From IMG/VR virus record IMGVR_UViG_2974640449_000001, positions 242 to 64,241 of that record: a stretch of 64,000 nt of DNA; one strand, 5' to 3'. Made by a program: the position numbers and the translations under genes. The notes under the pieces were generated by a model. That model was not told the DNA's origin. It ran no database searches and saw nothing but the letters and a program-made list of their open reading frames with translations. This document shows, in pieces, positions 12,167 to 54,535 of the stretch (position 1 is the first letter of the stretch; each line of letters opens with the position of its first letter). Source of the stretch: a virus (taxonomy: Duplodnaviria > Heunggongvirae > Uroviricota > Caudoviricetes > Demerecviridae).

Positions 12167-12640
12167 ATGGCAAAGAATACCAACAAACGAGTGGCTACCA
12201 AGCATATTCGCGATGGTATCAAGTCTAACTATTCCAAGAAAGATTATTGTGAGATTTGTGGTACGGAGCACGACTTAGAGCTTCACCACTACCATACGGT
12301 ATCTCTACTTCTTAAAAAGTATGCCAAAGAGAATGGTATTCCCATCTCAACTGACGAGCAAGTTCTCGCTATGCGGGACGACTTCTATAAAGCACACTGG
12401 CATGAATTAGTTGAGGATACCGTAACCCTTTGCAATAGTCACCACGTAAAACTACACCAGATATATTCTCAAGAGCCTGACCTATCAACTGCTAGTAAGC
12501 AGCGTAGATGGGTTAAGATACAACGAGATAGGCAAGGTGGCACTGTGGAAGAAATGCCAATCAGTACCAGTGATAGCTCAGCAACAGCGTTGTGTAATTA
12601 CATGGTTGAGAGCATTTCATTAGACAGATTTAAGGTATAA
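12167..12640 (+). CDS. HNH-type (nicking) endonuclease
   Basis: CxxC...LHH...TLCxxHH motif; T5-like position between terL and portal. Confidence 0.8.
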   Translation: MAKNTNKRVATKHIRDGIKSNYSKKDYCEICGTEHDLELHHYHTVSLLLKKYAKENGIPISTDEQVLAMRDDFYKAHWHELVEDTVTLCNSHHVKLHQIYSQEPDLSTASKQRRWVKIQRDRQGGTVEEMPISTSDSSATALCNYMVESISLDRFKV

Positions 12641-12642
12641 AT

Positions 12643-13869
12643 ATGGGATTAAGAGATTGGTTAGTCACTAAATTAAACCCAGCCCAAGAACTTATTTCCA
12701 GAGAAGAGCCTAGCTCATCTTCTAGTAATAAGAAGCCTTTGACGACAACTCGTGCTTTTGAGGACGTAGAGGTTGTAAACCGTTGTGTTAACCTTTTAGT
12801 TGATAATGCTTGTCAAGTTAGATATGATATTAAAGACGCGTATTCTTTTACACCGCTTGGGGCTGGTAAAGCAAAAGGCGGTATTCGTCAAGAAAAAGTA
12901 AAAGAGCTGCTTAATGTTAGACCTAATCCATTTATGGATGCTAGTACCTTCTGGCGTTTGGTTATAATGGACTTTATCATGGAAGGTTGGGCATTTATTC
13001 ATTGGGATGGTTACTCATTATATCATCTACCTGCTGCTAATATGGAAGTGTATGCTGACAAGAAGCAGTATATTAACAGATATATTTATGGCGCACAGGT
13101 AGAATTTCAGCCAAATGAGATTATCTTTATCAAAGATAATGCTTATAATAGAGGTAACTCAACTCAAATTGAGGGATTCTCTAGAATCTTATCTAGCTTA
13201 GAAGGCTTAGTAAGACGAGATAAACTGCTACAATTCAAAGAGAAGTTCTTTGATAACGGTGCTGTATTTAGTTTAATACTTGAAACAGAAGCGGTACTTA
13301 ACAAGAAACTTAAAAAACGTTTCGAAGAAGAAATATCTTTAGATTATAACCCACGCACAGGTCGTTCTAGTGTTAAGGTTCTAGATGCTGGTATGAAAGC
13401 CAAAACTCTAACGCCTACTAGTTCTAAGGACTTGGATGTTAAAGCAGATGTTGACGATTTTGAACGTAAAGCATGTATTGCTTTAGGTATCCCACCATTG
13501 CTACTAGACTCTGGTAATAATGCTAACATTCGTCCTAATATAGAATTATTTTTCTATATGACTATCTTGCCCATGATGCGTAAGTTTGAGTCTGTATTTG
13601 AGACATTCTTTGGTTACGATATTAAGTTAACTACAGATGATATTACAGCGCTAGCACCAGATGCAAAAGCTGAGGCCGAAGCAGTAACCTCTAAGGTAAA
13701 CAATGGTCTTATTACTCCTAACGAAGGCCGTATGGAACTACGCTATGACCCTCTAGAAGGTCAGGATATGGATAAGATTCGTATACCACAGAATATTGCA
13801 GGTTCTGGTACTGGAGTATCGGGACAGGAGGGTGGAAAACCTTCAAACTCGGACTCAGATGACAACTAA
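12643..13869 (+). CDS. Portal protein (pb7-like, HK97 family)
   Basis: VRPNPFM, GIPP.LL motifs; synteny. Confidence 0.92.
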   Translation: MGLRDWLVTKLNPAQELISREEPSSSSSNKKPLTTTRAFEDVEVVNRCVNLLVDNACQVRYDIKDAYSFTPLGAGKAKGGIRQEKVKELLNVRPNPFMDASTFWRLVIMDFIMEGWAFIHWDGYSLYHLPAANMEVYADKKQYINRYIYGAQVEFQPNEIIFIKDNAYNRGNSTQIEGFSRILSSLEGLVRRDKLLQFKEKFFDNGAVFSLILETEAVLNKKLKKRFEEEISLDYNPRTGRSSVKVLDAGMKAKTLTPTSSKDLDVKADVDDFERKACIALGIPPLLLDSGNNANIRPNIELFFYMTILPMMRKFESVFETFFGYDIKLTTDDITALAPDAKAEAEAVTSKVNNGLITPNEGRMELRYDPLEGQDMDKIRIPQNIAGSGTGVSGQEGGKPSNSDSDDN

Positions 13870-14098
13870 ACAAGTTAATTTTAATACAGTCTACAATGAT
13901 TTTGGGGATACCCTCCCAGATAAGAGTGCATTCTTCAATGACCCTAGAAATGAAGTTTCTAGAGTTATGCTACGCTACCGCTATAAGGTAGATAGTGACT
14001 GTAGAGCTTTCACGCTCTTCCGCAAAGAATACGCTGATTTTGTGGCTAAGTTAAAAGTATCAAAAACACCTTCGGAGAAGCAGGATGAAGCTAAATAA
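13859..14098 (+). CDS. Head decoration protein, pb10 N-terminal domain only
   Basis: FGDTLP..AFF resembles the T5 pb10 FGEKLP..IFF motif; lies between portal and protease; no Ig domain. Confidence 0.6.
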   Translation: MTTKQVNFNTVYNDFGDTLPDKSAFFNDPRNEVSRVMLRYRYKVDSDCRAFTLFRKEYADFVAKLKVSKTPSEKQDEAK

Positions 14099-14693
14099 AC
14101 CTATTGATATGGAGCTATCTGCTAGTTTCGTAGCTAAAGCAGCCAACGATGAAGACGATTCTCCATTGATTATTAAGGGTTACGCTAACACAGTCAATAA
14201 AGACCGTGCTGGTGACGTAATCCCTAAAGATGCATGGCTAGGTAAGAATGCTCTTCCTAACTATGAAAAGAACCCTATCATTCTTGCATTCCACAATCAC
14301 TCGATGCCAATCGGTAAAATGGTTGGGTATGAAGTTACTGACGAAGGCTTACAAATTGAAGCAGAAATCAGTAAAGCAGCAGGCCCAGTATACCAACTAA
14401 TTAAAGATGGTATATTAAAAACATTTAGTGTAGGCTTCCGCTGTCTTGACGCTGAATGGAAGAAAGATGAAGACATTTATTTAATTAAAGAATTAGAACT
14501 ATACGAAGTATCGGTAGTCTCAGTTCCATGTAATCAAGACTCAGTATTCGAAGTTTCTAAGAGTTTGAACTCTGCTGATTACAATGATTTTAGAAAACAA
14601 CTTCAAGCAAAGGCTAGTGAACAGCCGAGCGAACCTAACGAAGTTGACGTGTTAGAAAAGCTAGCCATTGCGCTAGGAGTTAAGAAAGGATAA
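14085..14693 (+). CDS. Prohead protease (pb11-like)
   Basis: DRAGD, FHNH (catalytic His), FSVGF (catalytic Ser), EVSVVSVPCN. Confidence 0.93.
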   Translation: MKLNKPIDMELSASFVAKAANDEDDSPLIIKGYANTVNKDRAGDVIPKDAWLGKNALPNYEKNPIILAFHNHSMPIGKMVGYEVTDEGLQIEAEISKAAGPVYQLIKDGILKTFSVGFRCLDAEWKKDEDIYLIKELELYEVSVVSVPCNQDSVFEVSKSLNSADYNDFRKQLQAKASEQPSEPNEVDVLEKLAIALGVKKG

Positions 14694-14700
14694 TACAATT

Positions 14701-16098
14701 ATGCCAATGACAGAAAAAGAAATTGCTGAACTACAGGAAAAGCTAGGTATCAAATCAGTAGTAGAAGCTGCTAATAAACTTACCGAGAAAGCCGCAGAAG
14801 AAGAACGCAAAAAAGCTGAACAAGCTCGTAAAGAAGCGGAAGAAGCACGCGTAAAAGCTCTTGTAGACGAAGCTACTGGTGAACAAAAAGAAAAACTAGA
14901 AACAGCGCTTGCCCTGGTTAAAGCTCTTTCAGAAAAACTAGAAAGTGGCGACGTTGATGGCTTTGCTAAGTCAGTAGAAGAAACCCAAAACCAAATCAAA
15001 TCAGTACGTGATGAAGTAGCTCAACTAATGGCAGCTCGTGAAGGTAAAAACTCAATCGCAGTAGCAGTTGGTAAAGCATTCAATCTAAAATCACAAACTG
15101 ACTTCGAAGAAGAAGCAGAAAAAGCTGTTCTACTTTCTTTCATTACTAAGAAAGGCGTATTCGAAACAGAATTTGGTGCTAAACTAGAAAAAGCAGTAAA
15201 CGATAGTTCATCTATCCAAGTTTCTAGCGAAAACTACGAAACAGTATTCTCAAATCGTATCCTACGTGACATTCAGAAACTACTAGTTGTTGGTGCTATG
15301 TTCCAAGAACTACCAATGTCAAGTAAGAAACTAACAATGCAAATCGAACCTGATGCACAAGATGCAACATGGGTAGATGCATCAACTTACGGTAAAGAAA
15401 CTACTGTAGGTAACGAAATCAAAGTTGCACTAACTGACATTACGTTCAGCACATTCAAACTAGCAGCTAAAGCTTACATGACAGACGAAACTGAAGAAGA
15501 CGCAATCACTGCACTTCTACCAATCATCCGTCGTCACCTAATCGAAGCTCACGTACAAGCTATCGAGAAAGCATTCATGGGTGGTGAAGACACTGCTCCA
15601 GTAGGTAAACCAACTGGTCTATTGACTTTCGCTAAACTTGACAACAAACGTATTGCTACTACAGCAACACACGACGGTACTACTAAAGTAACTGCTAAAA
15701 TGATTCATCAGCTACGTCGTCAACTAGGTCTTAAAGGTCTACGTCTAGATGCTCTAGCTCTAATCGTTTCAATGGACGCTTACTACGATCTTCTAGAAGA
15801 TGATGAATGGCAAGACATTAACCAAGTAGGCGCTAGCGCTTCGGTTAAACTACAAGGTCAACTTGGTCGTATCTATGGTATGCCAGTAGTTGTTTCTAGC
15901 TACTTCCCAGCTAAAGCAGCTAAGAAAGAGTTCTGTGCAATCGTTTATCGTAACGAATTCGTAGTTCCTCGCCAACGCCGTGTGACAGTTGAGTACGAAC
16001 GTCGTGCCTCAGAACAACGTGATGCGTACTACGTAACACAACGTCTGAACCTACAACGTTACTTCAACAACAACGTCGTAACAGGTACATACGCTTAA
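14701..16098 (+). CDS. Major capsid protein with N-terminal delta/scaffold domain (pb8-like)
   Basis: Coiled-coil N-terminus, AVNDSSS maturation region, DETEEDA motif. Confidence 0.95.
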   Translation: MPMTEKEIAELQEKLGIKSVVEAANKLTEKAAEEERKKAEQARKEAEEARVKALVDEATGEQKEKLETALALVKALSEKLESGDVDGFAKSVEETQNQIKSVRDEVAQLMAAREGKNSIAVAVGKAFNLKSQTDFEEEAEKAVLLSFITKKGVFETEFGAKLEKAVNDSSSIQVSSENYETVFSNRILRDIQKLLVVGAMFQELPMSSKKLTMQIEPDAQDATWVDASTYGKETTVGNEIKVALTDITFSTFKLAAKAYMTDETEEDAITALLPIIRRHLIEAHVQAIEKAFMGGEDTAPVGKPTGLLTFAKLDNKRIATTATHDGTTKVTAKMIHQLRRQLGLKGLRLDALALIVSMDAYYDLLEDDEWQDINQVGASASVKLQGQLGRIYGMPVVVSSYFPAKAAKKEFCAIVYRNEFVVPRQRRVTVEYERRASEQRDAYYVTQRLNLQRYFNNNVVTGTYA

Positions 16099-17946: not shown

Positions 17947-19392
17947 ATGTCAGTCCAATTATTACGTAATACTAGACTATGGGCTAGTATAGCAAAGCCA
18001 GGGGAAACACTTGACAAGACCAATACCTGGGAAGTGTTAATCCAAGAAGACTTTGCATTCAACCAAGACGGTAACTCTACCGACATTAACTTAGATGAAG
18101 CAGGCCCACGCCCAACTCGTGGTTCTAAGAGATTTAATGATAATCTAAACCCTGCTGACTGGAACTTCTCTACCTACCTACGCCCTTATTTAAGCGACGC
18201 AGGTACTAGTAACAACAAGTTAGATGATGTAGTTCTAACCCCAGATTACGCCTTGTGGCACTGCCTAGCTAGTGGTTCTCCTGTAGATATTACTAATGAA
18301 GACGGAGTTAAAGCTAACTCTACAAATATGCTAGTAAGTTTCAAAGACAACCAGTACCACCAACTTAATACACTTACATTGTTCTATTTAGTTGATAACG
18401 TATGGTATAAAATCCATGATGTACAAATCAACCAAGCAGAAATCAGTATGGATATTGAGGGTATTGGTATGACTGCTTGGTCTGGACAAGGTACAAAAGT
18501 AGAGCCACTAGGTACTACACAGCCTTTCGACCCTAACTCGGCAGACTTTACTTTCCCTGATGATGTGTTTGAAACAGCTCCATATATTAAGAATAAGTTA
18601 ACTACTTTATTCATTAAAGATAATAAGGATGATGTTAAGTATGATATTCCTATTACTGGTGGTTCTATTACTATCAATAACAATATCAGCTACTTGACAC
18701 CAAATACTCTATCGCGTTTAGACCTACCTATTGGTTCATTCACAGGAACATTCGAAGTTTCAGGTAGCTTAGAAGCTTACCTACGTAACAGAGAGTCTGG
18801 TGATTCCCAAGATCGTGCAGCAGAGTTGCTAAACAAAATGATTACCGACAGAAGTATTACTAATAGCTTCCAGATTGGTATCTGTTTAGGCGGTGTATAT
18901 CCTAACGCTAATGCAAGCACAGTGACTAAAGCACCTGGCGTTGTAATTGTACTACCAACGGCACATCTATCAGTACCTTCTACTGAAACAGCCGATGTAC
19001 TAGGTACTAGTATTGAGTTCAAAGGTATTCCTACAGAGCTTGATGCAGGGGACGAAGTATATATAGGTATGAGCCCAGCGTACACCGCTGCGCAGATCCA
19101 AGCTCTTATTGAGCGAGGCGACGGAGCTAGACTATCTGCTCCACCAGGCATTACCACACAACCTGCTAATCAAACACTAACTACAGGTGAACAATTGCAG
19201 CTATCAGTGGCAGCTTCTGACGCGTCGCGTTACCAGTGGTATAAAGATGGTGCTCCTATTAGTGGCGCTACATCTTCAACATATACTAAGAGCTCCGCAG
19301 CTCTGTCAGACAGTGGTAAGTACTACGTAGAAGCCTACAATAGTGAAGGTAGTAAAACTACTAGTAACACGATCACCGTTACTGTTAGTTAA
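17947..19392 (+). CDS. Tail tube protein with C-terminal Ig-like domain (pb6-like)
   Basis: MSVQLLRNTR N-terminus; YQWYKDG...DSGKY Ig domain. Confidence 0.9.
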   Translation: MSVQLLRNTRLWASIAKPGETLDKTNTWEVLIQEDFAFNQDGNSTDINLDEAGPRPTRGSKRFNDNLNPADWNFSTYLRPYLSDAGTSNNKLDDVVLTPDYALWHCLASGSPVDITNEDGVKANSTNMLVSFKDNQYHQLNTLTLFYLVDNVWYKIHDVQINQAEISMDIEGIGMTAWSGQGTKVEPLGTTQPFDPNSADFTFPDDVFETAPYIKNKLTTLFIKDNKDDVKYDIPITGGSITINNNISYLTPNTLSRLDLPIGSFTGTFEVSGSLEAYLRNRESGDSQDRAAELLNKMITDRSITNSFQIGICLGGVYPNANASTVTKAPGVVIVLPTAHLSVPSTETADVLGTSIEFKGIPTELDAGDEVYIGMSPAYTAAQIQALIERGDGARLSAPPGITTQPANQTLTTGEQLQLSVAASDASRYQWYKDGAPISGATSSTYTKSSAALSDSGKYYVEAYNSEGSKTTSNTITVTVS

Positions 19393-19406: not shown

Positions 19407-20291
19407 ATGTCATACACTCTACAGAAAGAGTGCAAGATAGTGTTAATCTATAAAGGTATAGGGTATCTATTCGATGCCCTTACCCAGTTTGACTTTAGCC
19501 AGACTTTCAATAGATCGTCTGGCTCTAGGAAGACTCTGCACTCAAAGAAAGCAAAACCATATACATATGCTAATTCTAAAAACTCAGCTACGTTTAGCTT
19601 CGGTGTATTAGGTACTAAGAGCTTTTCGGAAGGTGTACTATTCGAATTGGCAGGTTTAACTAAGTTACATGCCAATGTATATGAATATGGTGACGAATTA
19701 GGTATATCACCTGAGTTTTGTGATATATTAATAGTTACTAAGGCTGGCACACATAAAGTATCCAAAGCAGCGGTACAGTCACTAGAAGTATCCCTAGCAC
19801 TAAGTGAGCCACTAGCTTTTGATGTATCATTTACTGCTAGTAGTATTAAAAGAGTATCTGGTATAGATTTATCTTCTGGGTTGATAGAGCAAGGTGAGCC
19901 ATTGTTACCTACTCCTATACAATATAGAATAAATAATATTCTTAACAACTCAGTGATAAATGCAGGTATATCTTTGCAGCAATCCATAGATTGGAGGGCT
20001 GACAGAGGCTTGCATGACATAGGTAATTTATATGTACCTAAGCATGCAGTACTAACAGATAGGAGTTATGGTATGAATGTAAATACGTATCTAAATACCA
20101 AGTACCCTACTCCAGAAGAAGCTTATTACGCAAATCTAGAATTATATAAATCTGGATTATATCTCTCATTAGGAGATGCATTGGTAACACACAGAGTAGC
20201 TCCTGCAGATGTATTTACAGAAGCACAAGATGTTACTATAACTGACAAAACAAATAAAATTATCGTGGAATATGGAGGATATTTAATATGA
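19407..20291 (+). CDS. Baseplate tube / minor tail protein (p140-like)
   Basis: About 295 aa directly after the tail tube gene. Confidence 0.75.
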   Translation: MSYTLQKECKIVLIYKGIGYLFDALTQFDFSQTFNRSSGSRKTLHSKKAKPYTYANSKNSATFSFGVLGTKSFSEGVLFELAGLTKLHANVYEYGDELGISPEFCDILIVTKAGTHKVSKAAVQSLEVSLALSEPLAFDVSFTASSIKRVSGIDLSSGLIEQGEPLLPTPIQYRINNILNNSVINAGISLQQSIDWRADRGLHDIGNLYVPKHAVLTDRSYGMNVNTYLNTKYPTPEEAYYANLELYKSGLYLSLGDALVTHRVAPADVFTEAQDVTITDKTNKIIVEYGGYLI

Positions 20292-20698
20292 AATTAAGTC
20301 TATCAGCATTAGCACTTAACTCAAAAACAGCAGAGTTTGACTTCCCAGGTATCGTAGGATTTAAAGTACGCCTTACTTACCTATCTAGAGAAGCTAGACG
20401 TAAGATTCAGGAAAAATGTAAAGTTCAGAAATATGATGAAACTTCTGGTCTTCCATATATGGATCTAGATGTAGAGAAATACACGGAAGAATACGTGAAA
20501 GCAACAATCAATGGCTGGACAGGGTTAACGCTAGAGAACGTAGCTAACCTAATGCTTATCGATCAATCTCAAGTAGAAGACCCTAAAGCTGAAATCGATT
20601 TTGACATTGATACTGCTATACAGCTTGTTAAGTTATCTGAGAAATTTGATAACTGGGTTAGTGCTAAGTTGGCACAAATCGAGAACTTTCGAAACTGA
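20288..20698 (+). CDS. Tail assembly chaperone (gpG/p139-like)
   Basis: Synteny; 136 aa. Confidence 0.75.
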   Translation: MKLSLSALALNSKTAEFDFPGIVGFKVRLTYLSREARRKIQEKCKVQKYDETSGLPYMDLDVEKYTEEYVKATINGWTGLTLENVANLMLIDQSQVEDPKAEIDFDIDTAIQLVKLSEKFDNWVSAKLAQIENFRN

Positions 20699-21101
20699 GA
20701 GACGGAAACTTCTATTCGAATCTCTCGATAAATATTTCGATAAACAGAATGGTTTCTCTAAATCTAAGTATATAAATATATGTATGCAACTTGGAGAGAA
20801 GCCAGACCCTAAGAGAATGCCTATAGATTTCTCAGACTTTCCACCAATAGTGAGAGACGCTATAGAAATCTTTAATAGACTAGGTGACAGGTACACTAGT
20901 ACTGATCTTGGACCACTTTATATTGGTAAAGATATATCAACATTAGATTTCTTATATAATATTTATGAGATTCATGATGTAGAAGATAGAAAATTAACAC
21001 TAGAGATAGTACAGCACCTAGATAGTAAAATAGTTAAACAAGCAGTTAGTAAATGGAAAACAGAAGCCAAAAAGCTAAAAGCAAAGGCTAAACACCACTA
21101 G
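20688..21101 (+). CDS. Tail assembly chaperone extension (gpT/p138-like), probably reached by frameshift
   Basis: Open +1 frame across the end of the upstream gene, no good SD/ATG of its own. Confidence 0.65.
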   Translation, partial: FETERRKLLFESLDKYFDKQNGFSKSKYINICMQLGEKPDPKRMPIDFSDFPPIVRDAIEIFNRLGDRYTSTDLGPLYIGKDISTLDFLYNIYEIHDVEDRKLTLEIVQHLDSKIVKQAVSKWKTEAKKLKAKAKHH

Positions 21102-21138
21102 CTACTTAACCGAGTCCTCACGGGCATTCCACGAGCTT

Positions 21139-21167
21139 GCTCTGGGTGTAATGCCCAGAGCTTTTTT
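21139..21167 (+). terminator. Intrinsic terminator with a competing upstream arm (attenuator-like)
   Basis: GCTCTGGG-N7-CCCAGAGC-TTTTTT; GGGCATT (21122-21128) can pair with AATGCCC (21150-21156). Confidence 0.7.
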
Positions 21168-21182
21168 CGTATGGAGAAAACA

Positions 21183-21941
21183 ATGATTAAAGACCTAAAA
21201 ACATATATTGAAACCGTGAACAAATCAGCAACATCTTCTGTATCAGGTGCCGAAGACACTAAAGTACTTGCTCTACGCAGCGCAACCCTAAAAGGAAGTG
21301 CTTTACTTGCTATGTTACCTGATGTTACCTTAACAGGTAAATACACTGATATTCCTTTCCTACACCTGCCTTCAGATATGGATACCATCTACTCTGTTGG
21401 CGGCATTCAAGTAGAGAAAGAATTGCTATCAGCCTCTGCTACATTGGTAGACGAGACCACAGAAGATGCTAGTCCTAACTTGGAAGCAGCACTAGATACT
21501 ATTCTAACTTCGCAGGCTAGACTTAAACTGGAAAAATACTTAGCTGACAAACTTACAACACCTACCCCTACCGCAGGTGCTTCCTCTAAGAACTTCGCTA
21601 CAATTGTAGATACTATCAAGAAGTTCCCTTCTCAAGCATTATCTATCGAAGGGCAGTTTATTGCAGTAACGTCCCCTATGACATACTTTGCATTGCTAAG
21701 TACAATGGACAATGCACATCGCGAAATGGTCAAGCAGGGTATTATTAAGCTAGTACCTCTTTATGGCGTTGCAGACGATGCTCTAGTAGTTCTGCATACT
21801 CAAGGGGTGGCTTTTGGATTCCAGATTTATAATTTAGAGAAAGACCGCGAAGCAAGTAAAGGTAGCACTGATTTAATAGTAAATGTAGCAGCGGGCTTTG
21901 GATACGATAGAGATTACATCAAACACGTAAAACTAAGCTAA
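21183..21941 (+). CDS. HK97-fold capsid protein paralogue lacking the scaffold domain
   Basis: Colinear motif matches to the mature part of 14701..16098 (VN.S...VS; L.A.A..DET.EDA...L...EK; S..Y..LL; E..R.AS...V). Confidence 0.75.
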   Translation: MIKDLKTYIETVNKSATSSVSGAEDTKVLALRSATLKGSALLAMLPDVTLTGKYTDIPFLHLPSDMDTIYSVGGIQVEKELLSASATLVDETTEDASPNLEAALDTILTSQARLKLEKYLADKLTTPTPTAGASSKNFATIVDTIKKFPSQALSIEGQFIAVTSPMTYFALLSTMDNAHREMVKQGIIKLVPLYGVADDALVVLHTQGVAFGFQIYNLEKDREASKGSTDLIVNVAAGFGYDRDYIKHVKLS

Positions 21942-21956
21942 TAAACGGGAGTTTAT

Positions 21957-24900
21957 ATGGCTAATAAGCTAATCGAAGAACTAATCATTAAGGTAAAGCA
22001 ACAAGGAGCTAAACCTACTGAAAAAGCAATTAAGGGTGTCGGTGACGCCCTTAGTGAAGCTAAAACCGCTAGCAACGCCTTTAACTCTGCGATGGAGAGA
22101 ACTCCTAAATATCTTAAAAAGGTAGAAGAGCAAGCTTCAAGAACCTCCACTCAGTTAAGTAAAGTAAAGCTAAACTTCTCTTCAAAAGCTACTGAAACTT
22201 CACTAGGTAATATTGAAAGTGCATTAGAAGCTCTAGTAGGTGAGTCGTTGGAAATGAACGACACAATGGCCACTATGAGTAAAAACTTGATTACTCTATT
22301 TGAAAACTTAAGCGTGCAGCTAGGAGCCGACCTAGAAAGAGTAGAAGACGGTCTTATTGATGTACGTCAAGAAGCTGGTAAAACTAATGATGCCTTGGTT
22401 AAAGTAGGTAAAGGGGCTAAGAAAGCTGGTCGTGGCTTGGCTAACTCTAACCGTCAAGGTAGAAACCAGGCTCGTACCTTCTCAGATCTAGCTAAGTTTG
22501 CTGGGCCTCTTCCTTTACTATACGCTAACATTGCAGCTAACGTGTTCGCGCTTAGTGAAGCCTTTAGACTACTAAGCGAAGGTGAACAGTTAAATCGTCT
22601 AGAAGAAGTTGGTACTATCATAGGTTCTAAAATTGGTACACCAGTTCAGTTAATAGCTAAGGATATGCAGAAGCTAACTGGGTATACCCTTAGTTATGGT
22701 GAATCACTAAGAAATGCTGCTGCAGCTGCCTCTTATGGATTTGACTCAAAGCAAATAGAACAGTTAACCATGGCGGCACGTCGAGCATCTATTGCTCTAG
22801 GTGTCGATATGCAAGACGCCATGAACCGTGTTATTCGCGGTACATCTAAACTAGAAATAGAACTATTAGACGAACTTGGTATTACTACTAAGCTGACAAC
22901 TGCTTACGAGCGTTATGCTCAACAGCTAGGTATTAGCGCCAATTCACTTAACTCATACCAACAACGGGCAGCATTGGTAAATGAGATTAACTCACAGTCG
23001 GTAGAGAAGTTTGGCGATCTAGATGAGATGTTGAGAAACGGTGCCCCTTGGGAAGTATTTGGGGCTAATACTGCATCGGCATTCCAGACGTTTATGCAGA
23101 ATATCTCTGAGGCGACTTCATTCATTCCTAAATTCTTCAATGAAATAGAGGAAGGATCTAGACGAATAGAAGAGCCATTAGATAATGCTAAAAAGCTACT
23201 AGAATCTTTCTCTATGGCAGATGGTAGGGCGGGGCAAGTAGGCATACTCGTAGAAGCCAATAACCAAATAGAAGACTTAGAAAAGAGATTAAGTGTACTA
23301 AGGCAGACCAATACTAGTAGTTTTTCTGTGGCTGAACTTGTAAACTATAAGGATGAAGTACGGAACGTACGTACCGCTATAGATAAACTTAGGGGCTTGA
23401 TGTCCACTCAAAGTCTAGGTATAGATGCTATCAAAGAGATAGACGGTGCATATAGAAACCTAAATGCTACAGTAAAAGGTTCAGTACAATCTTATAACAC
23501 TAGTTTGGCCTCAATTAAAGGGCAAAGTACTTCTTATGAGAAACTATACTCTGATGTAAACTCTATGAAAATAGCCTATGAGAAGTTAGCTGCTGTAGAT
23601 CCTGGATTTAAGGCTGCAGATGCACTAAAACAATTAGGCTTTGAGTCTAAGTTTGCATTAGACCGCGCAACAGAGCTTGCCAGAACTTATAGGGATACTA
23701 ATAGGGAGTTGGCAGTCTTTGCTAAGACTCAAGCAGAAGCAGAAGTTCAAGGACGCTACTCAGGTAAAGAACCTGAAGCAGTTAAACTAGGGTTATTAAA
23801 AGAGCAACAAGTCCTTTATACTAAACTCCTAATAGATCAACAAAGATTAGGTGCTAGTAGTGTGGCTACGGCTAAAACATCTGCCCAGGTTGCAAAATTA
23901 GCATCTCAAACCATAGATACACAAGTTGCTTTAGTAGACGTACACACTAAAGAATTAGATACCCAAACTAGACTTAATATGGCTCTTCAACCAGAGTTAT
24001 TAATTAAGAAAGATCTACTATCCAATGAGAAAACCAGATTAGCAAACTTGCAACTGATCCAAGGTACTCACAAAGAGCAAGAACAGTCTCTAAATAGAAT
24101 TAAGCAATTAGAAAACGAAATACTAGCAGTACAAGTAGCTCAGTCTAATGCTATGATGGACTCTGCCCTAGGTAGCTTAGCCTCATTTGCCCCAGGTATT
24201 GATCAAATGACTAGTTCCCTTAATGGGCTAGCTATGTCATTCAATAACATGGGTCAATCTAGCATGACCGCCACACAGATGGTATCTTCTGGGTTGAATG
24301 CCTTCCAAGGGATGCTATCGTATTCTTCTAACCAGTCTATACAAGCAGTAGATGCACAAATAGCTGCGGAACAGAAGCGTGATGGTAAGTCTAAGGAATC
24401 AGTAGCTAAGATAAATGCACTTGAGAAGAAGAAGATTGAACAACAGAAAAAGGCAGCCAAACAACAAATTCTTATCTCTACTGCGGTAGCGGTAATGAAT
24501 GCGGCGGCTAACCCTTGGCCTGTTCCAGCTATCCCGTTAATGGCTACAGCAGCATTAGCAGGTGGATTAGCGTATCAACAAGCCTCTAGCGCTTCTAGTA
24601 ATCTAGTATCTTCGGCTAGTGGTAATACTCAGGCGTCCTTAACTCTTGGCGATAGGTCGAATCAAGTAGATGTGTCTCAATCAGCATCTCGCGGTGAGTT
24701 AGCATACATTAGAAATGAATCTGGTACTGGTAGTATGCAATCCTTTACTCCTAGAGCTAACGGCGGTATAGGTATCCCAGGAAATAGTCTAGTAGTAGGA
24801 GAACATGGTCCGGAGGTTATTACACCACTAGAACCAATACAAGCCTACAGTGCAGAAGAGTCTAGAGCTATGGGTGGTAGTTATACAGATAACCGTCAAC

Positions 24901-25013
24901 TAGTAGTACAAGCTATTGATACTCAATCAATCATGGATAGAGCAGACGATATCTTTAATGCTTGGGATGACGCAGCATATCAGCGTGGCATGAACTCAGA
25001 CAGACTACGTTAA
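21957..25013 (+). CDS. Tape measure protein (pb2-like)
   Basis: 1018 aa, coiled-coil, hydrophobic segment near the C-terminus, GE.GPE.I motif. Confidence 0.92.
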   Translation: MANKLIEELIIKVKQQGAKPTEKAIKGVGDALSEAKTASNAFNSAMERTPKYLKKVEEQASRTSTQLSKVKLNFSSKATETSLGNIESALEALVGESLEMNDTMATMSKNLITLFENLSVQLGADLERVEDGLIDVRQEAGKTNDALVKVGKGAKKAGRGLANSNRQGRNQARTFSDLAKFAGPLPLLYANIAANVFALSEAFRLLSEGEQLNRLEEVGTIIGSKIGTPVQLIAKDMQKLTGYTLSYGESLRNAAAAASYGFDSKQIEQLTMAARRASIALGVDMQDAMNRVIRGTSKLEIELLDELGITTKLTTAYERYAQQLGISANSLNSYQQRAALVNEINSQSVEKFGDLDEMLRNGAPWEVFGANTASAFQTFMQNISEATSFIPKFFNEIEEGSRRIEEPLDNAKKLLESFSMADGRAGQVGILVEANNQIEDLEKRLSVLRQTNTSSFSVAELVNYKDEVRNVRTAIDKLRGLMSTQSLGIDAIKEIDGAYRNLNATVKGSVQSYNTSLASIKGQSTSYEKLYSDVNSMKIAYEKLAAVDPGFKAADALKQLGFESKFALDRATELARTYRDTNRELAVFAKTQAEAEVQGRYSGKEPEAVKLGLLKEQQVLYTKLLIDQQRLGASSVATAKTSAQVAKLASQTIDTQVALVDVHTKELDTQTRLNMALQPELLIKKDLLSNEKTRLANLQLIQGTHKEQEQSLNRIKQLENEILAVQVAQSNAMMDSALGSLASFAPGIDQMTSSLNGLAMSFNNMGQSSMTATQMVSSGLNAFQGMLSYSSNQSIQAVDAQIAAEQKRDGKSKESVAKINALEKKKIEQQKKAAKQQILISTAVAVMNAAANPWPVPAIPLMATAALAGGLAYQQASSASSNLVSSASGNTQASLTLGDRSNQVDVSQSASRGELAYIRNESGTGSMQSFTPRANGGIGIPGNSLVVGEHGPEVITPLEPIQAYSAEESRAMGGSYTDNRQLVVQAIDTQSIMDRADDIFNAWDDAAYQRGMNSDRLR

Positions 25014-25060: not shown

Positions 25061-25088
25061 TTGACTTTAGCTAGTTTACGTGTATAAT
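25061..25088 (+). promoter_or_regulatory. Probable promoter of the tail-tip genes
   Basis: TTGACT-N16-TATAAT. Confidence 0.5.
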
Positions 25089-53925: not shown

Positions 53926-54170
53926 GCCCATTTTTGCGGAATTGAGACCTGTAAGTGCTTTTCAATTAATTCAGCAGAACCGTTTGCAGAGAAGCCATAC
54001 ATAGTACATAAGAATACTCGTATCTGAGCCAACATAGTTTCATAATTTTCCCCTGCTTCTAGTTGTAGTATGTGAGACTTTTCTTCTGCTAAGTCGTCTG
54101 CTGCACGTTTAGCTCGTTGGTGGAAAGATTGTTGTCTTTCTGCAATTGATTTAGGTTTACTGTATCTCAT
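53904..54170 (-). CDS. Conserved hypothetical protein
   Basis: 88 aa, GAGGA SD. Confidence 0.7.
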   Translation of the reverse strand: MRYSKPKSIAERQQSFHQRAKRAADDLAEEKSHILQLEAGENYETMLAQIRVFLCTMYGFSANGSAELIEKHLQVSIPQKWACVSGRM

Positions 54171-54535
54171 TTATTTTCCTCTATAAATTGAACTGGGGTG
54201 GCATCTTCGTCTGCATGGTTAGTTGTTAGGCCATAAGACATAACCTCTATTTCAGTATGTACTAAGTGATCTTCATCAGGGTCTACGTAACTAGAGATTG
54301 ATCTATAAGAAGGAGCTACAAATAAGTCGGATATATTCGTATCTAGTTTGCCTTCTATTAATAATTTTCCATCTTCTACTATTGCGTCTGTTACAACCCC
54401 TACGACATTATTGGCATCATAGTTAACTAGTATAGGCTTCTCCACACCCTCAAACTTCTTGAGCGATTCAGGTGTGAATACGTTACCGTTCTTATCCGGT
54501 TTAATAGAGGATGCTGTGCATTTGAATCTATACAT
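54167..54535 (-). CDS. Degenerate prohead-protease-like protein
   Basis: DKNGNVF...PILVNYD...VVG...DGKLLIEG aligns by eye with 14085..14693; catalytic His and Ser positions not conserved. Confidence 0.55.
   Translation of the reverse strand: MYRFKCTASSIKPDKNGNVFTPESLKKFEGVEKPILVNYDANNVVGVVTDAIVEDGKLLIEGKLDTNISDLFVAPSYRSISSYVDPDEDHLVHTEIEVMSYGLTTNHADEDATPVQFIEENK

Follow-up and report, generated by a model that had tools for sequence, protein, structure and literature searches.

Why should a phage that already encodes a T5-type major capsid protein carry, among its tail genes, a second gene of the same descent? The question is raised by positions 21,183 to 21,941 of a 64,000-nucleotide stretch of Demerecviridae DNA (IMG/VR record IMGVR_UViG_2974640449_000001, positions 242 to 64,241), hereafter the window, which is the left half of a 128,241-base-pair T5-like genome with terminal repeats, closest to Vibrio phages of the Ermolyevavirinae. 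All records examined annotate the gene as hypothetical, and its protein family, phrog_15693, has no assigned function; a literature search returned no paper on it. Judged from profile comparisons and a structural model, its product has the HK97 fold but no scaffold domain, and is a paralogue of the T5-type major capsid protein of the same phage. As to its role, we tentatively favour a minor subunit of the virion shell, most likely forming pentameric vertex capsomers in the manner of T4 gp24 or of the SaPIbov5 protein Ccm, a reading to which we give somewhat less than an even chance.

The open reading frame (ORF; 21171/21183-21941, + strand) gives 252 amino acids (aa) when started at ATG 21183, which is the length in all close relatives, and the translation matches phrog_15693 in full (expectation value, E, 1.1e-143; query residues 5-256 against profile positions 1-253 of 253). 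Profiles are required for a significant likeness to the capsid protein, because single-protein BLASTP of the paralogue against the phage's own capsid protein finds a DETxEDA stretch alone (E 0.044); a Pfam scan of the single 252-aa protein returned no family at E<=1, PF05065 (Phage_capsid) and the encapsulin families included. A family alignment (A1) of 37 sequences, built from 32 representatives found in a search of 1.84 billion proteins together with close relatives, was compared by hhalign with an alignment (A2) of 26 T5-type major capsid proteins, and the two match colinearly over 218 columns (probability 90.6%, E 1.3e-6; target residues 16-236 against capsid residues 167-442). The first-pass annotation, made from the letters of the window, had paired four stretches by eye, had called the protein colinear with the mature capsid protein and had staked this kinship on a significant profile match; all four pairs stand in register in this single alignment, and the match is there. 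Searched against all Protein Data Bank (PDB) sequences, the A1 profile has T5 pb8 as its best match (E 9e-4), followed by the DT57C capsid protein, every match below E 1 being a capsid or encapsulin protein, and scans of all six frames of the T5, My1 and Aeromonas TS3 genomes meet capsid genes only (E 9e-5 to 3e-4). The paralogue and the capsid protein are ~19% identical; T92, E94, D95 and E117, conserved in the family, align with the invariant capsid residues T264, E266, D267 and E289, and E219 and R222, the former also conserved in the family, with the invariant E431 and R434.

The part in common starts where the capsid protein is matured. The cut of T5 pb8 between K159 and A160, taken from the 299-residue PDB chain, maps between K164 and A165 of the window's capsid protein, whose mature N-terminus aligns with residues 11-21 of the paralogue; the paralogue starts 10 residues before the cut position, and many family members begin just 2-5 residues ahead of it. 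Since the capsid match begins at this position, the delta (scaffold) domain is missing, and the N-terminal extension that the prohead protease removes from T5-type capsid proteins has no counterpart here; a start near the maturation site and the lack of a delta domain had both been read correctly at first pass. Compared with T5 pb8 (PF05065; PDB 5tjt, 8zvi) and the window's capsid protein, the paralogue is predicted to have the same fold, colinear from the maturation site to the C-terminus, with DETxED at the start of the spine helix and the E117/E289 and ExxR positions in common, whereas it is devoid of the 164-residue delta domain, is ~50 residues shorter than the mature form, is encoded among the tail genes and has a much higher rate of evolution.

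The HK97 fold is also predicted from structure. The AlphaFold2 (AF2) model, built on A1, has a mean predicted local distance difference test score (pLDDT) of 83.9 and a predicted template modelling score (pTM) of 0.78, and contains the N-arm, E-loop, spine helix, P-domain and A-domain by which the fold is recognized. Foldseek gives 381 PDB matches at E<=1e-3 (best E 4e-11), the top ones being all capsid or encapsulin shells (NF5, DT57C, T5, HK97, Pyrococcus furiosus). The VIA aligner, independent of Foldseek, reaches Z 15.2 over 214 residues with the LME-1 capsid, and further matches are P. furiosus encapsulin (Z 15.0), a capsid-forming phage-inducible chromosomal island (PICI; Z 14.4), Dendrosporobacter encapsulin (Z 14.2), the SaPIbov5 Ccm procapsid (Z 12.7) and T4 gp24 (Z 12.6). 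BFVD, ESM-Atlas structure and language-model searches returned capsid proteins throughout. The shortened E-loop of the first-pass annotation appears in the hhalign alignment as an 18-residue gap in the hairpin, whose strands are seen in the AF2 model; other gaps with respect to the capsid protein follow the spine helix and lie in the A-domain.

The distribution of the gene among T5-like phages, which had been put forward as a check, is uniform. By tblastn it occurs in 355 phage records, all of them from Vibrio (355/355), and the T5-type capsid gene in 902, of which 354 are Vibrio; essentially every Vibrio T5-like phage carries the paralogue, none was found by tblastn in Salmonella, Escherichia, Klebsiella, Proteus, Aeromonas or Pectobacterium records, and it is absent from T5, My1 and Aeromonas TS3. 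Its slot between chaperone and tape measure genes is the same in all tail-module contexts examined, which are those of JSF10, D415, VPG01 and River4 and of four T5-like contigs from metagenomes. One gain or one loss suffices, since a single branch of the capsid-protein tree (support 90/96) divides carriers from non-carriers; furthermore, the deep split of the paralogue family tree matches that of the capsid tree. The ratio of nonsynonymous to synonymous substitution (dN/dS) is 0.11-0.21 for the paralogue and 0.14-0.19 for the capsid protein, with the tape measure protein in a similar range. The gene is old, fixed, syntenic and under purifying selection, and the recent event implied when it was first described as inserted in the tail operon does not agree with this picture. 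Unlike a moron, to which an own promoter, a downstream terminator and a patchy distribution would belong, it has its terminator upstream and is present in all Vibrio T5-like records. A scan of the phage's own genome gives nothing besides the gene at 21183-21941, and a search of 185,579 bacterial and archaeal genomes with a closer alignment (A3), which reaches close relatives only, gave no relative; the A3 search of IMG/VR gave five loci, all of known type. The sequencing runs that share window sequence are oyster and food metagenomes, in small shares, with no RNA run among them.

The slot is a sharp recombination boundary. Against River4 (L010), the capsid protein is 93% identical, the chaperone 99%, the genes upstream 97-99%, the paralogue 70% and the tape measure protein 79%, and the synonymous divergence (dS) rises from 0.05 in the chaperone gene to 1.2 in the paralogue, with 0.9 for the tape measure gene (window 20698-21957); the 86-nucleotide spacer is identical to that of River4, yet the gene right after it shows just the 70% mentioned. 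The intrinsic terminator ahead of the paralogue (Table 1), whose hairpin is strong, has equivalents, hairpin and U-tract, in JSF10, D415, L005 and L012, whose stems differ but stay complementary through compensatory changes; a small upstream hairpin (~21114-21125) is kept also in JSF10 and L012. Because it is kept across lineages, T5 included, the terminator is part of the T5-type tail operon rather than of the paralogue. No terminator was found between the paralogue and the tape measure gene, and the two constitute one unit behind it. Between the tape measure and distal tail genes there is a promoter-like site, TTGACT-16-TATAAT (11 of 12 against consensus; window 25061-25088), where T5 has the promoter P-G25. 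In T5 the slot (NC_005859 17778-18588) holds the terminator and then T5.141, a 250-aa endonuclease with CapR and zinc-finger domains (Pfam), so the statement of the first-pass annotation that T5 has no gene between chaperones and tape measure has to be corrected; My1 has none there. T5.141 was considered as a hidden homologue of the paralogue and rejected (hhalign probability 0.3%, together with its Pfam domains). Since T5 has an unrelated endonuclease there after the terminator, the slot is one in which accessory genes land throughout the family. The codon-adaptation index, taken as a stand-in for expression, proved uninformative, as the two reference genes scored 0.82 and 0.46 against each other.

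Three features of the relatives, namely duplicates, C-terminal extensions and a protease fusion, speak for a subunit of the virion shell. Three T5-like phages from metagenomes carry tandem duplicates: L005 has copies of 717 and 241 aa, L013 of 252 and 255 aa, and L008 has a 295-aa copy, a 329-aa gene and then a 247-aa copy, the middle gene having been weighed as a family member and rejected as unrelated. Two of the three loci have one extended copy, and duplication is recurrent, as the copies in L005 and in L013 are each other's nearest relatives. The 717-aa protein (P0040) carries a Laminin_G_3 domain (concanavalin A-like lectin; Pfam E 2.7e-7) after the HK97 body, plus ~300 further residues; P0043 has a 180-residue C-terminal extension and P0038 a short repetitive C-terminal tail. 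The language-model Atlas search gives lectin-type matches for the extensions of P0043 and P0040, to be taken as leads only. In HK97-type shells the N-terminus lies inside and the C-terminus outside (the latter established for encapsulins and phi29), and hence C-terminal additions fit an outward-facing assembled surface.

The fusion is found in P0044 (406 aa), where an S78 prohead protease (aa 11-169), with catalytic His and Ser present as judged by eye, precedes a phrog_15693 body (aa 225-399; E 9.5e-14). Such an arrangement fits a head role, because the HK97 N-terminus points into the prohead, where the protease must be. Its gene is flanked by that of a T5-type capsid protein and by the portal gene, beyond which the tape measure gene follows, and the exact protein was found in two sequencing runs; searches for further protease fusions of this type gave ordinary proteases only. 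This fusion, the sole physical link of the family to a known process, points to the head. The phage protease-capsid fusions phrog_617 and phrog_4523 likewise have an S78 protease followed by an HK97 body, whereas in P0044 the HK97 part is phrog_15693 and a separate full capsid gene adjoins. In the metagenomic contig that carries it (L003 1-6499, and also L004), the order is unusual: the T5-type capsid gene, a 52-aa gene, the protease-paralogue fusion, portal and tape measure gene follow one another on one strand, the head genes in the reverse of the T5 order and without tube genes between portal and tape measure.

According to the reading that we tentatively favour, the paralogue would join the head shell as a minor subunit, co-assembling with the delta-bearing major capsid protein; the latter would form the hexamers and supply the scaffolding, and the former would form the pentons. 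The N-terminally fused protease of P0044 would be delivered into the prohead, the C-terminal modules, one of them lectin-type, would be displayed outside the shell, and tandem copies with and without extension would correspond to decorated and plain subunits. We infer each of the steps that lead from capsid fold to presence in the shell, and from there to the vertices. The working analogy is T4 gp24 (PDB 1yue), likewise a phage-encoded HK97-fold capsid paralogue, which adjoins gp23 in the head module and has a short cleaved propeptide and an insertion domain; the gene studied here differs in lying in a tail operon, most members of its family have no propeptide, and its vertex placement is a proposal. 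The other precedent is SaPIbov5 Ccm, which is 24% identical to the helper's capsid protein and, in a mixed shell, occupies no capsomers but the pentamers (PMC8569155). Ccm (PDB 7rwz) is a divergent capsid-protein homologue as well, although it is satellite-encoded, has a delta domain and shrinks the helper capsid, whereas the paralogue is phage-encoded and no size change is known for it. The capsid gene and its divergent paralogue are present in one genome, as co-production of a vertex paralogue with the capsid protein would call for.

Several observations weigh against this placement. The gene is in the tail module, ~5 kilobases from the head genes and outside the head-assembly module, the fused L003 relative alone being found among head genes, and the protease fusion is known from a single lineage. 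The tape measure protein is present in just a few copies per virion, and sharing a unit with its gene behind the terminator suits a low-copy product better than 55 vertex subunits. A separate penton protein is not obviously needed either, since T5 builds its pentons from pb8 itself, as seen in the solved T5 capsid, and the capsid proteins of the Vibrio phages share 55-58% identity with T5 pb8. With respect to D415, the paralogue is 25% identical, against 55% for the capsid protein and 25% for p140, and so diverges as fast as the least conserved tail proteins; the River4 comparison shows in addition that it recombines independently of the capsid gene. Finally, a literature search gave no virion proteomics or cryo-electron microscopy of a Vibrio T5-like phage; the phage Seahorse (PMC7012835) was considered as a source of virion data and rejected as not T5-like.

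Part of this evidence would suit a capsid mimic that never stays in the virion, made late together with the capsid protein, and binding a defence sensor or a satellite's capsid-redirecting factor, or tuning head assembly. Restriction to one host group, Vibrio, among the 902 T5-type phage records, fast divergence with independent recombination (dS rising from 0.05 to 1.2 exactly at the slot), repeated duplication, and a slot that takes other accessory genes (the T5 endonuclease, the 329-aa gene of L008) all speak for it. The Vibrio restriction is, however, confounded with phylogeny, because one branch of the capsid tree explains it; dN/dS is plainly purifying and, taken over the whole gene, gives no hint of an arms race; and the search of the 185,579 genomes, with its close-relative reach, leaves no satellite or host copy known. 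A lectin-type C-terminal extension and an N-terminal protease fusion suit an oriented, assembled subunit and not a soluble decoy, and we consider such a mimic unlikely. The same fusions appear to favour a virion shell or vertex role over an encapsulin-like compartment, that is, a small shell of its own or a T=1-type particle separate from the head, which we regard as highly improbable. It is true that scaffold-independent shells are among the best structural matches (P. furiosus encapsulin, template modelling score 0.65/0.71 and Z 15.0; the Dendrosporobacter encapsulin at Z 14.2 and the capsid-forming PICI at Z 14.4), and that the delta domain is absent and the E-loop short; family 1 encapsulins (P. 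furiosus, PDB 2e0z; Thermotoga maritima) have just such a compact scaffold-less HK97 fold. Encapsulins are nonetheless cellular proteins encoded beside a cargo gene, whereas this family was found in phages only, has tail genes and no cargo-like neighbour at its flanks, matches no encapsulin family (nor any other in Pfam at E up to 1) and in sequence resembles the T5-type capsid protein most; the protease fusion adjoining a normal capsid gene also argues for co-assembly.

The position of the gene speaks for a protein of the tail pathway, in which the HK97 body would act with the tape measure protein, for instance by holding its long helical region in the way of a capsid protein with its scaffold, or would build a low-copy tail-associated structure. 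In the tail-module contexts examined the next gene downstream is without exception that of the tape measure protein, with which it shares a terminator-bounded unit; the stem of the terminator shows compensatory changes, and the unit is followed by the promoter-like site at 25061-25088; even in the rearranged L003 the fused copy is parted from the tape measure gene by the portal gene only, and lectin-type extensions would suit a tail adhesin too. Against this, the T5 and My1 genomes have no homologue besides the capsid gene, the sole fusion partner is a head protease, and gene order is weak evidence where the slot also accepts a homing-type endonuclease. We know of no HK97-fold protein in any tail, and the solved T5 and DT57C tails are, to our knowledge, fully accounted for without one. 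A tail-pathway function is in our view distinctly unlikely, and very unlikely is the bolder version in which the capsid fold, re-used outside the head shell, grips the tape measure rod like a scaffold or displays adhesin modules on a tail-borne ring.

A paralogue of a capsid protein is in itself of a known kind; new are its scaffold-less form, its fixed place beside the tape measure gene and its spread through the whole marine branch. The T5 group is a structural model system, in which the capsid gene is the sole HK97-fold gene of the T5 and DT57C records examined. Should the paralogue fill the vertices, it would add a case from outside the T4 group to the phage-encoded penton paralogues; it would show how a capsid protein that scaffolds itself recruits a subunit lacking a scaffold domain, and binding modules could naturally be displayed on it at the vertices. 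A place outside the head would mean that the capsid fold has been re-used for defence evasion or tail assembly, and in the case of a tail role it would be the first HK97-fold protein with a tail function.

Table 1. Coordinates of the paralogue, its parts and related features, in window positions.
Feature	Position	Strand	Basis or remark
Delta-less HK97-fold capsid paralogue (predicted), 252 aa, phrog_15693	21183..21941	+	ORF, profile, model, structure matches
Shine-Dalgarno GGAG, 6 nucleotides 5' of ATG 21183	21173..21176	+	
N-arm, aa 11-38, homologous to mature capsid N-terminus, helix aa 21-38	21213..21296	+	Model, hhalign
E-loop hairpin into P-domain strand, aa 54-89, ~18 residues shorter than that of the capsid protein	21342..21449	+	Strands 54-61, 71-89; hhalign gap
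DETxED motif and spine helix, aa 90-124	21450..21554	+	Alignments
A-domain, aa 130-205	21570..21797	+	Secondary structure, alignment
P-domain sheet and C-terminus, aa 209-252; extension point in relatives	21807..21938	+	Alignments
Intrinsic-terminator hairpin and T6 between chaperone genes and paralogue	21139..21167	+	Kept in every lineage; annotated at the same place in T5
Tail assembly chaperone pair, upstream neighbour	20288..21101	+	G = 20288-20698, overlapping extension ORF to 21101
Tape measure protein, 1018 aa, downstream neighbour, same terminator-bounded unit	21957..25013	+	PF24164 TMP_N
Major capsid protein with delta domain, 465 aa, parent type of paralogue	14701..16098	+	PF05065; predicted maturation cut between K164 and A165
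Prohead protease (S78), of which contig L003 has a relative fused to a phrog_15693 domain	14085..14693	+	
122-aa early-region protein, phrog_16618, unknown	54167-54535	-	Two database relatives only

The late region of the window runs in the order terminase, portal, S78 protease, major capsid protein, head completion protein, p143, tail terminator, tube protein with an immunoglobulin (Ig)-like end, p140, chaperone pair, 252-aa gene and tape measure protein, 3' of which come the distal tail protein, the baseplate hub and the fibres. A degenerate protease paralogue at 54167 had been suggested as partner of the 252-aa protein. The protease fold of this product is plausible: it matches the T5-type protease profile over 96 columns (hhalign E 3.3e-4, probability 38%), with the catalytic Ser and His positions replaced, and its poor AF2 model (pLDDT 57.7) has T4 gp21 and the herpesvirus assemblins as top Foldseek matches at a non-significant E of ~0.1. 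The partnership found no support, as this genome offers no link between the two genes besides the analogy with P0044.

Other genes of the head and tail region deserve a brief mention. Between portal and protease, where T5 has the gene of the Hoc-like decoration protein pb10, the window holds an ORF of ~80-100 aa at 13796-14098 (phrog_16166, family unknown), and no pb10-type family was met among the window proteins scanned. The gene 5' of the portal (12167-12640) belongs to phrog_3497, function unknown. The tail tube protein (17947-19392) has a C-terminal Ig-like domain (Ig_3, Ig_2, I-set; residues ~399-480) that also matches Hoc-like decoration families. In L013 (1230-3209; also P0061), a T5-like contig, a single product of 659 aa is called that spans protease and major capsid protein (PF04586 and PF05065); the fusion may be real, or an artefact of read-through or of a frameshift. 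In the Aeromonas phage vB_AdhS_TS3 (L026, OP820700), the structural region is annotated as short fragments, such as a 135-aa 'portal' and two small 'tail tube' pieces, which suggests that the deposited sequence has many frameshifts.

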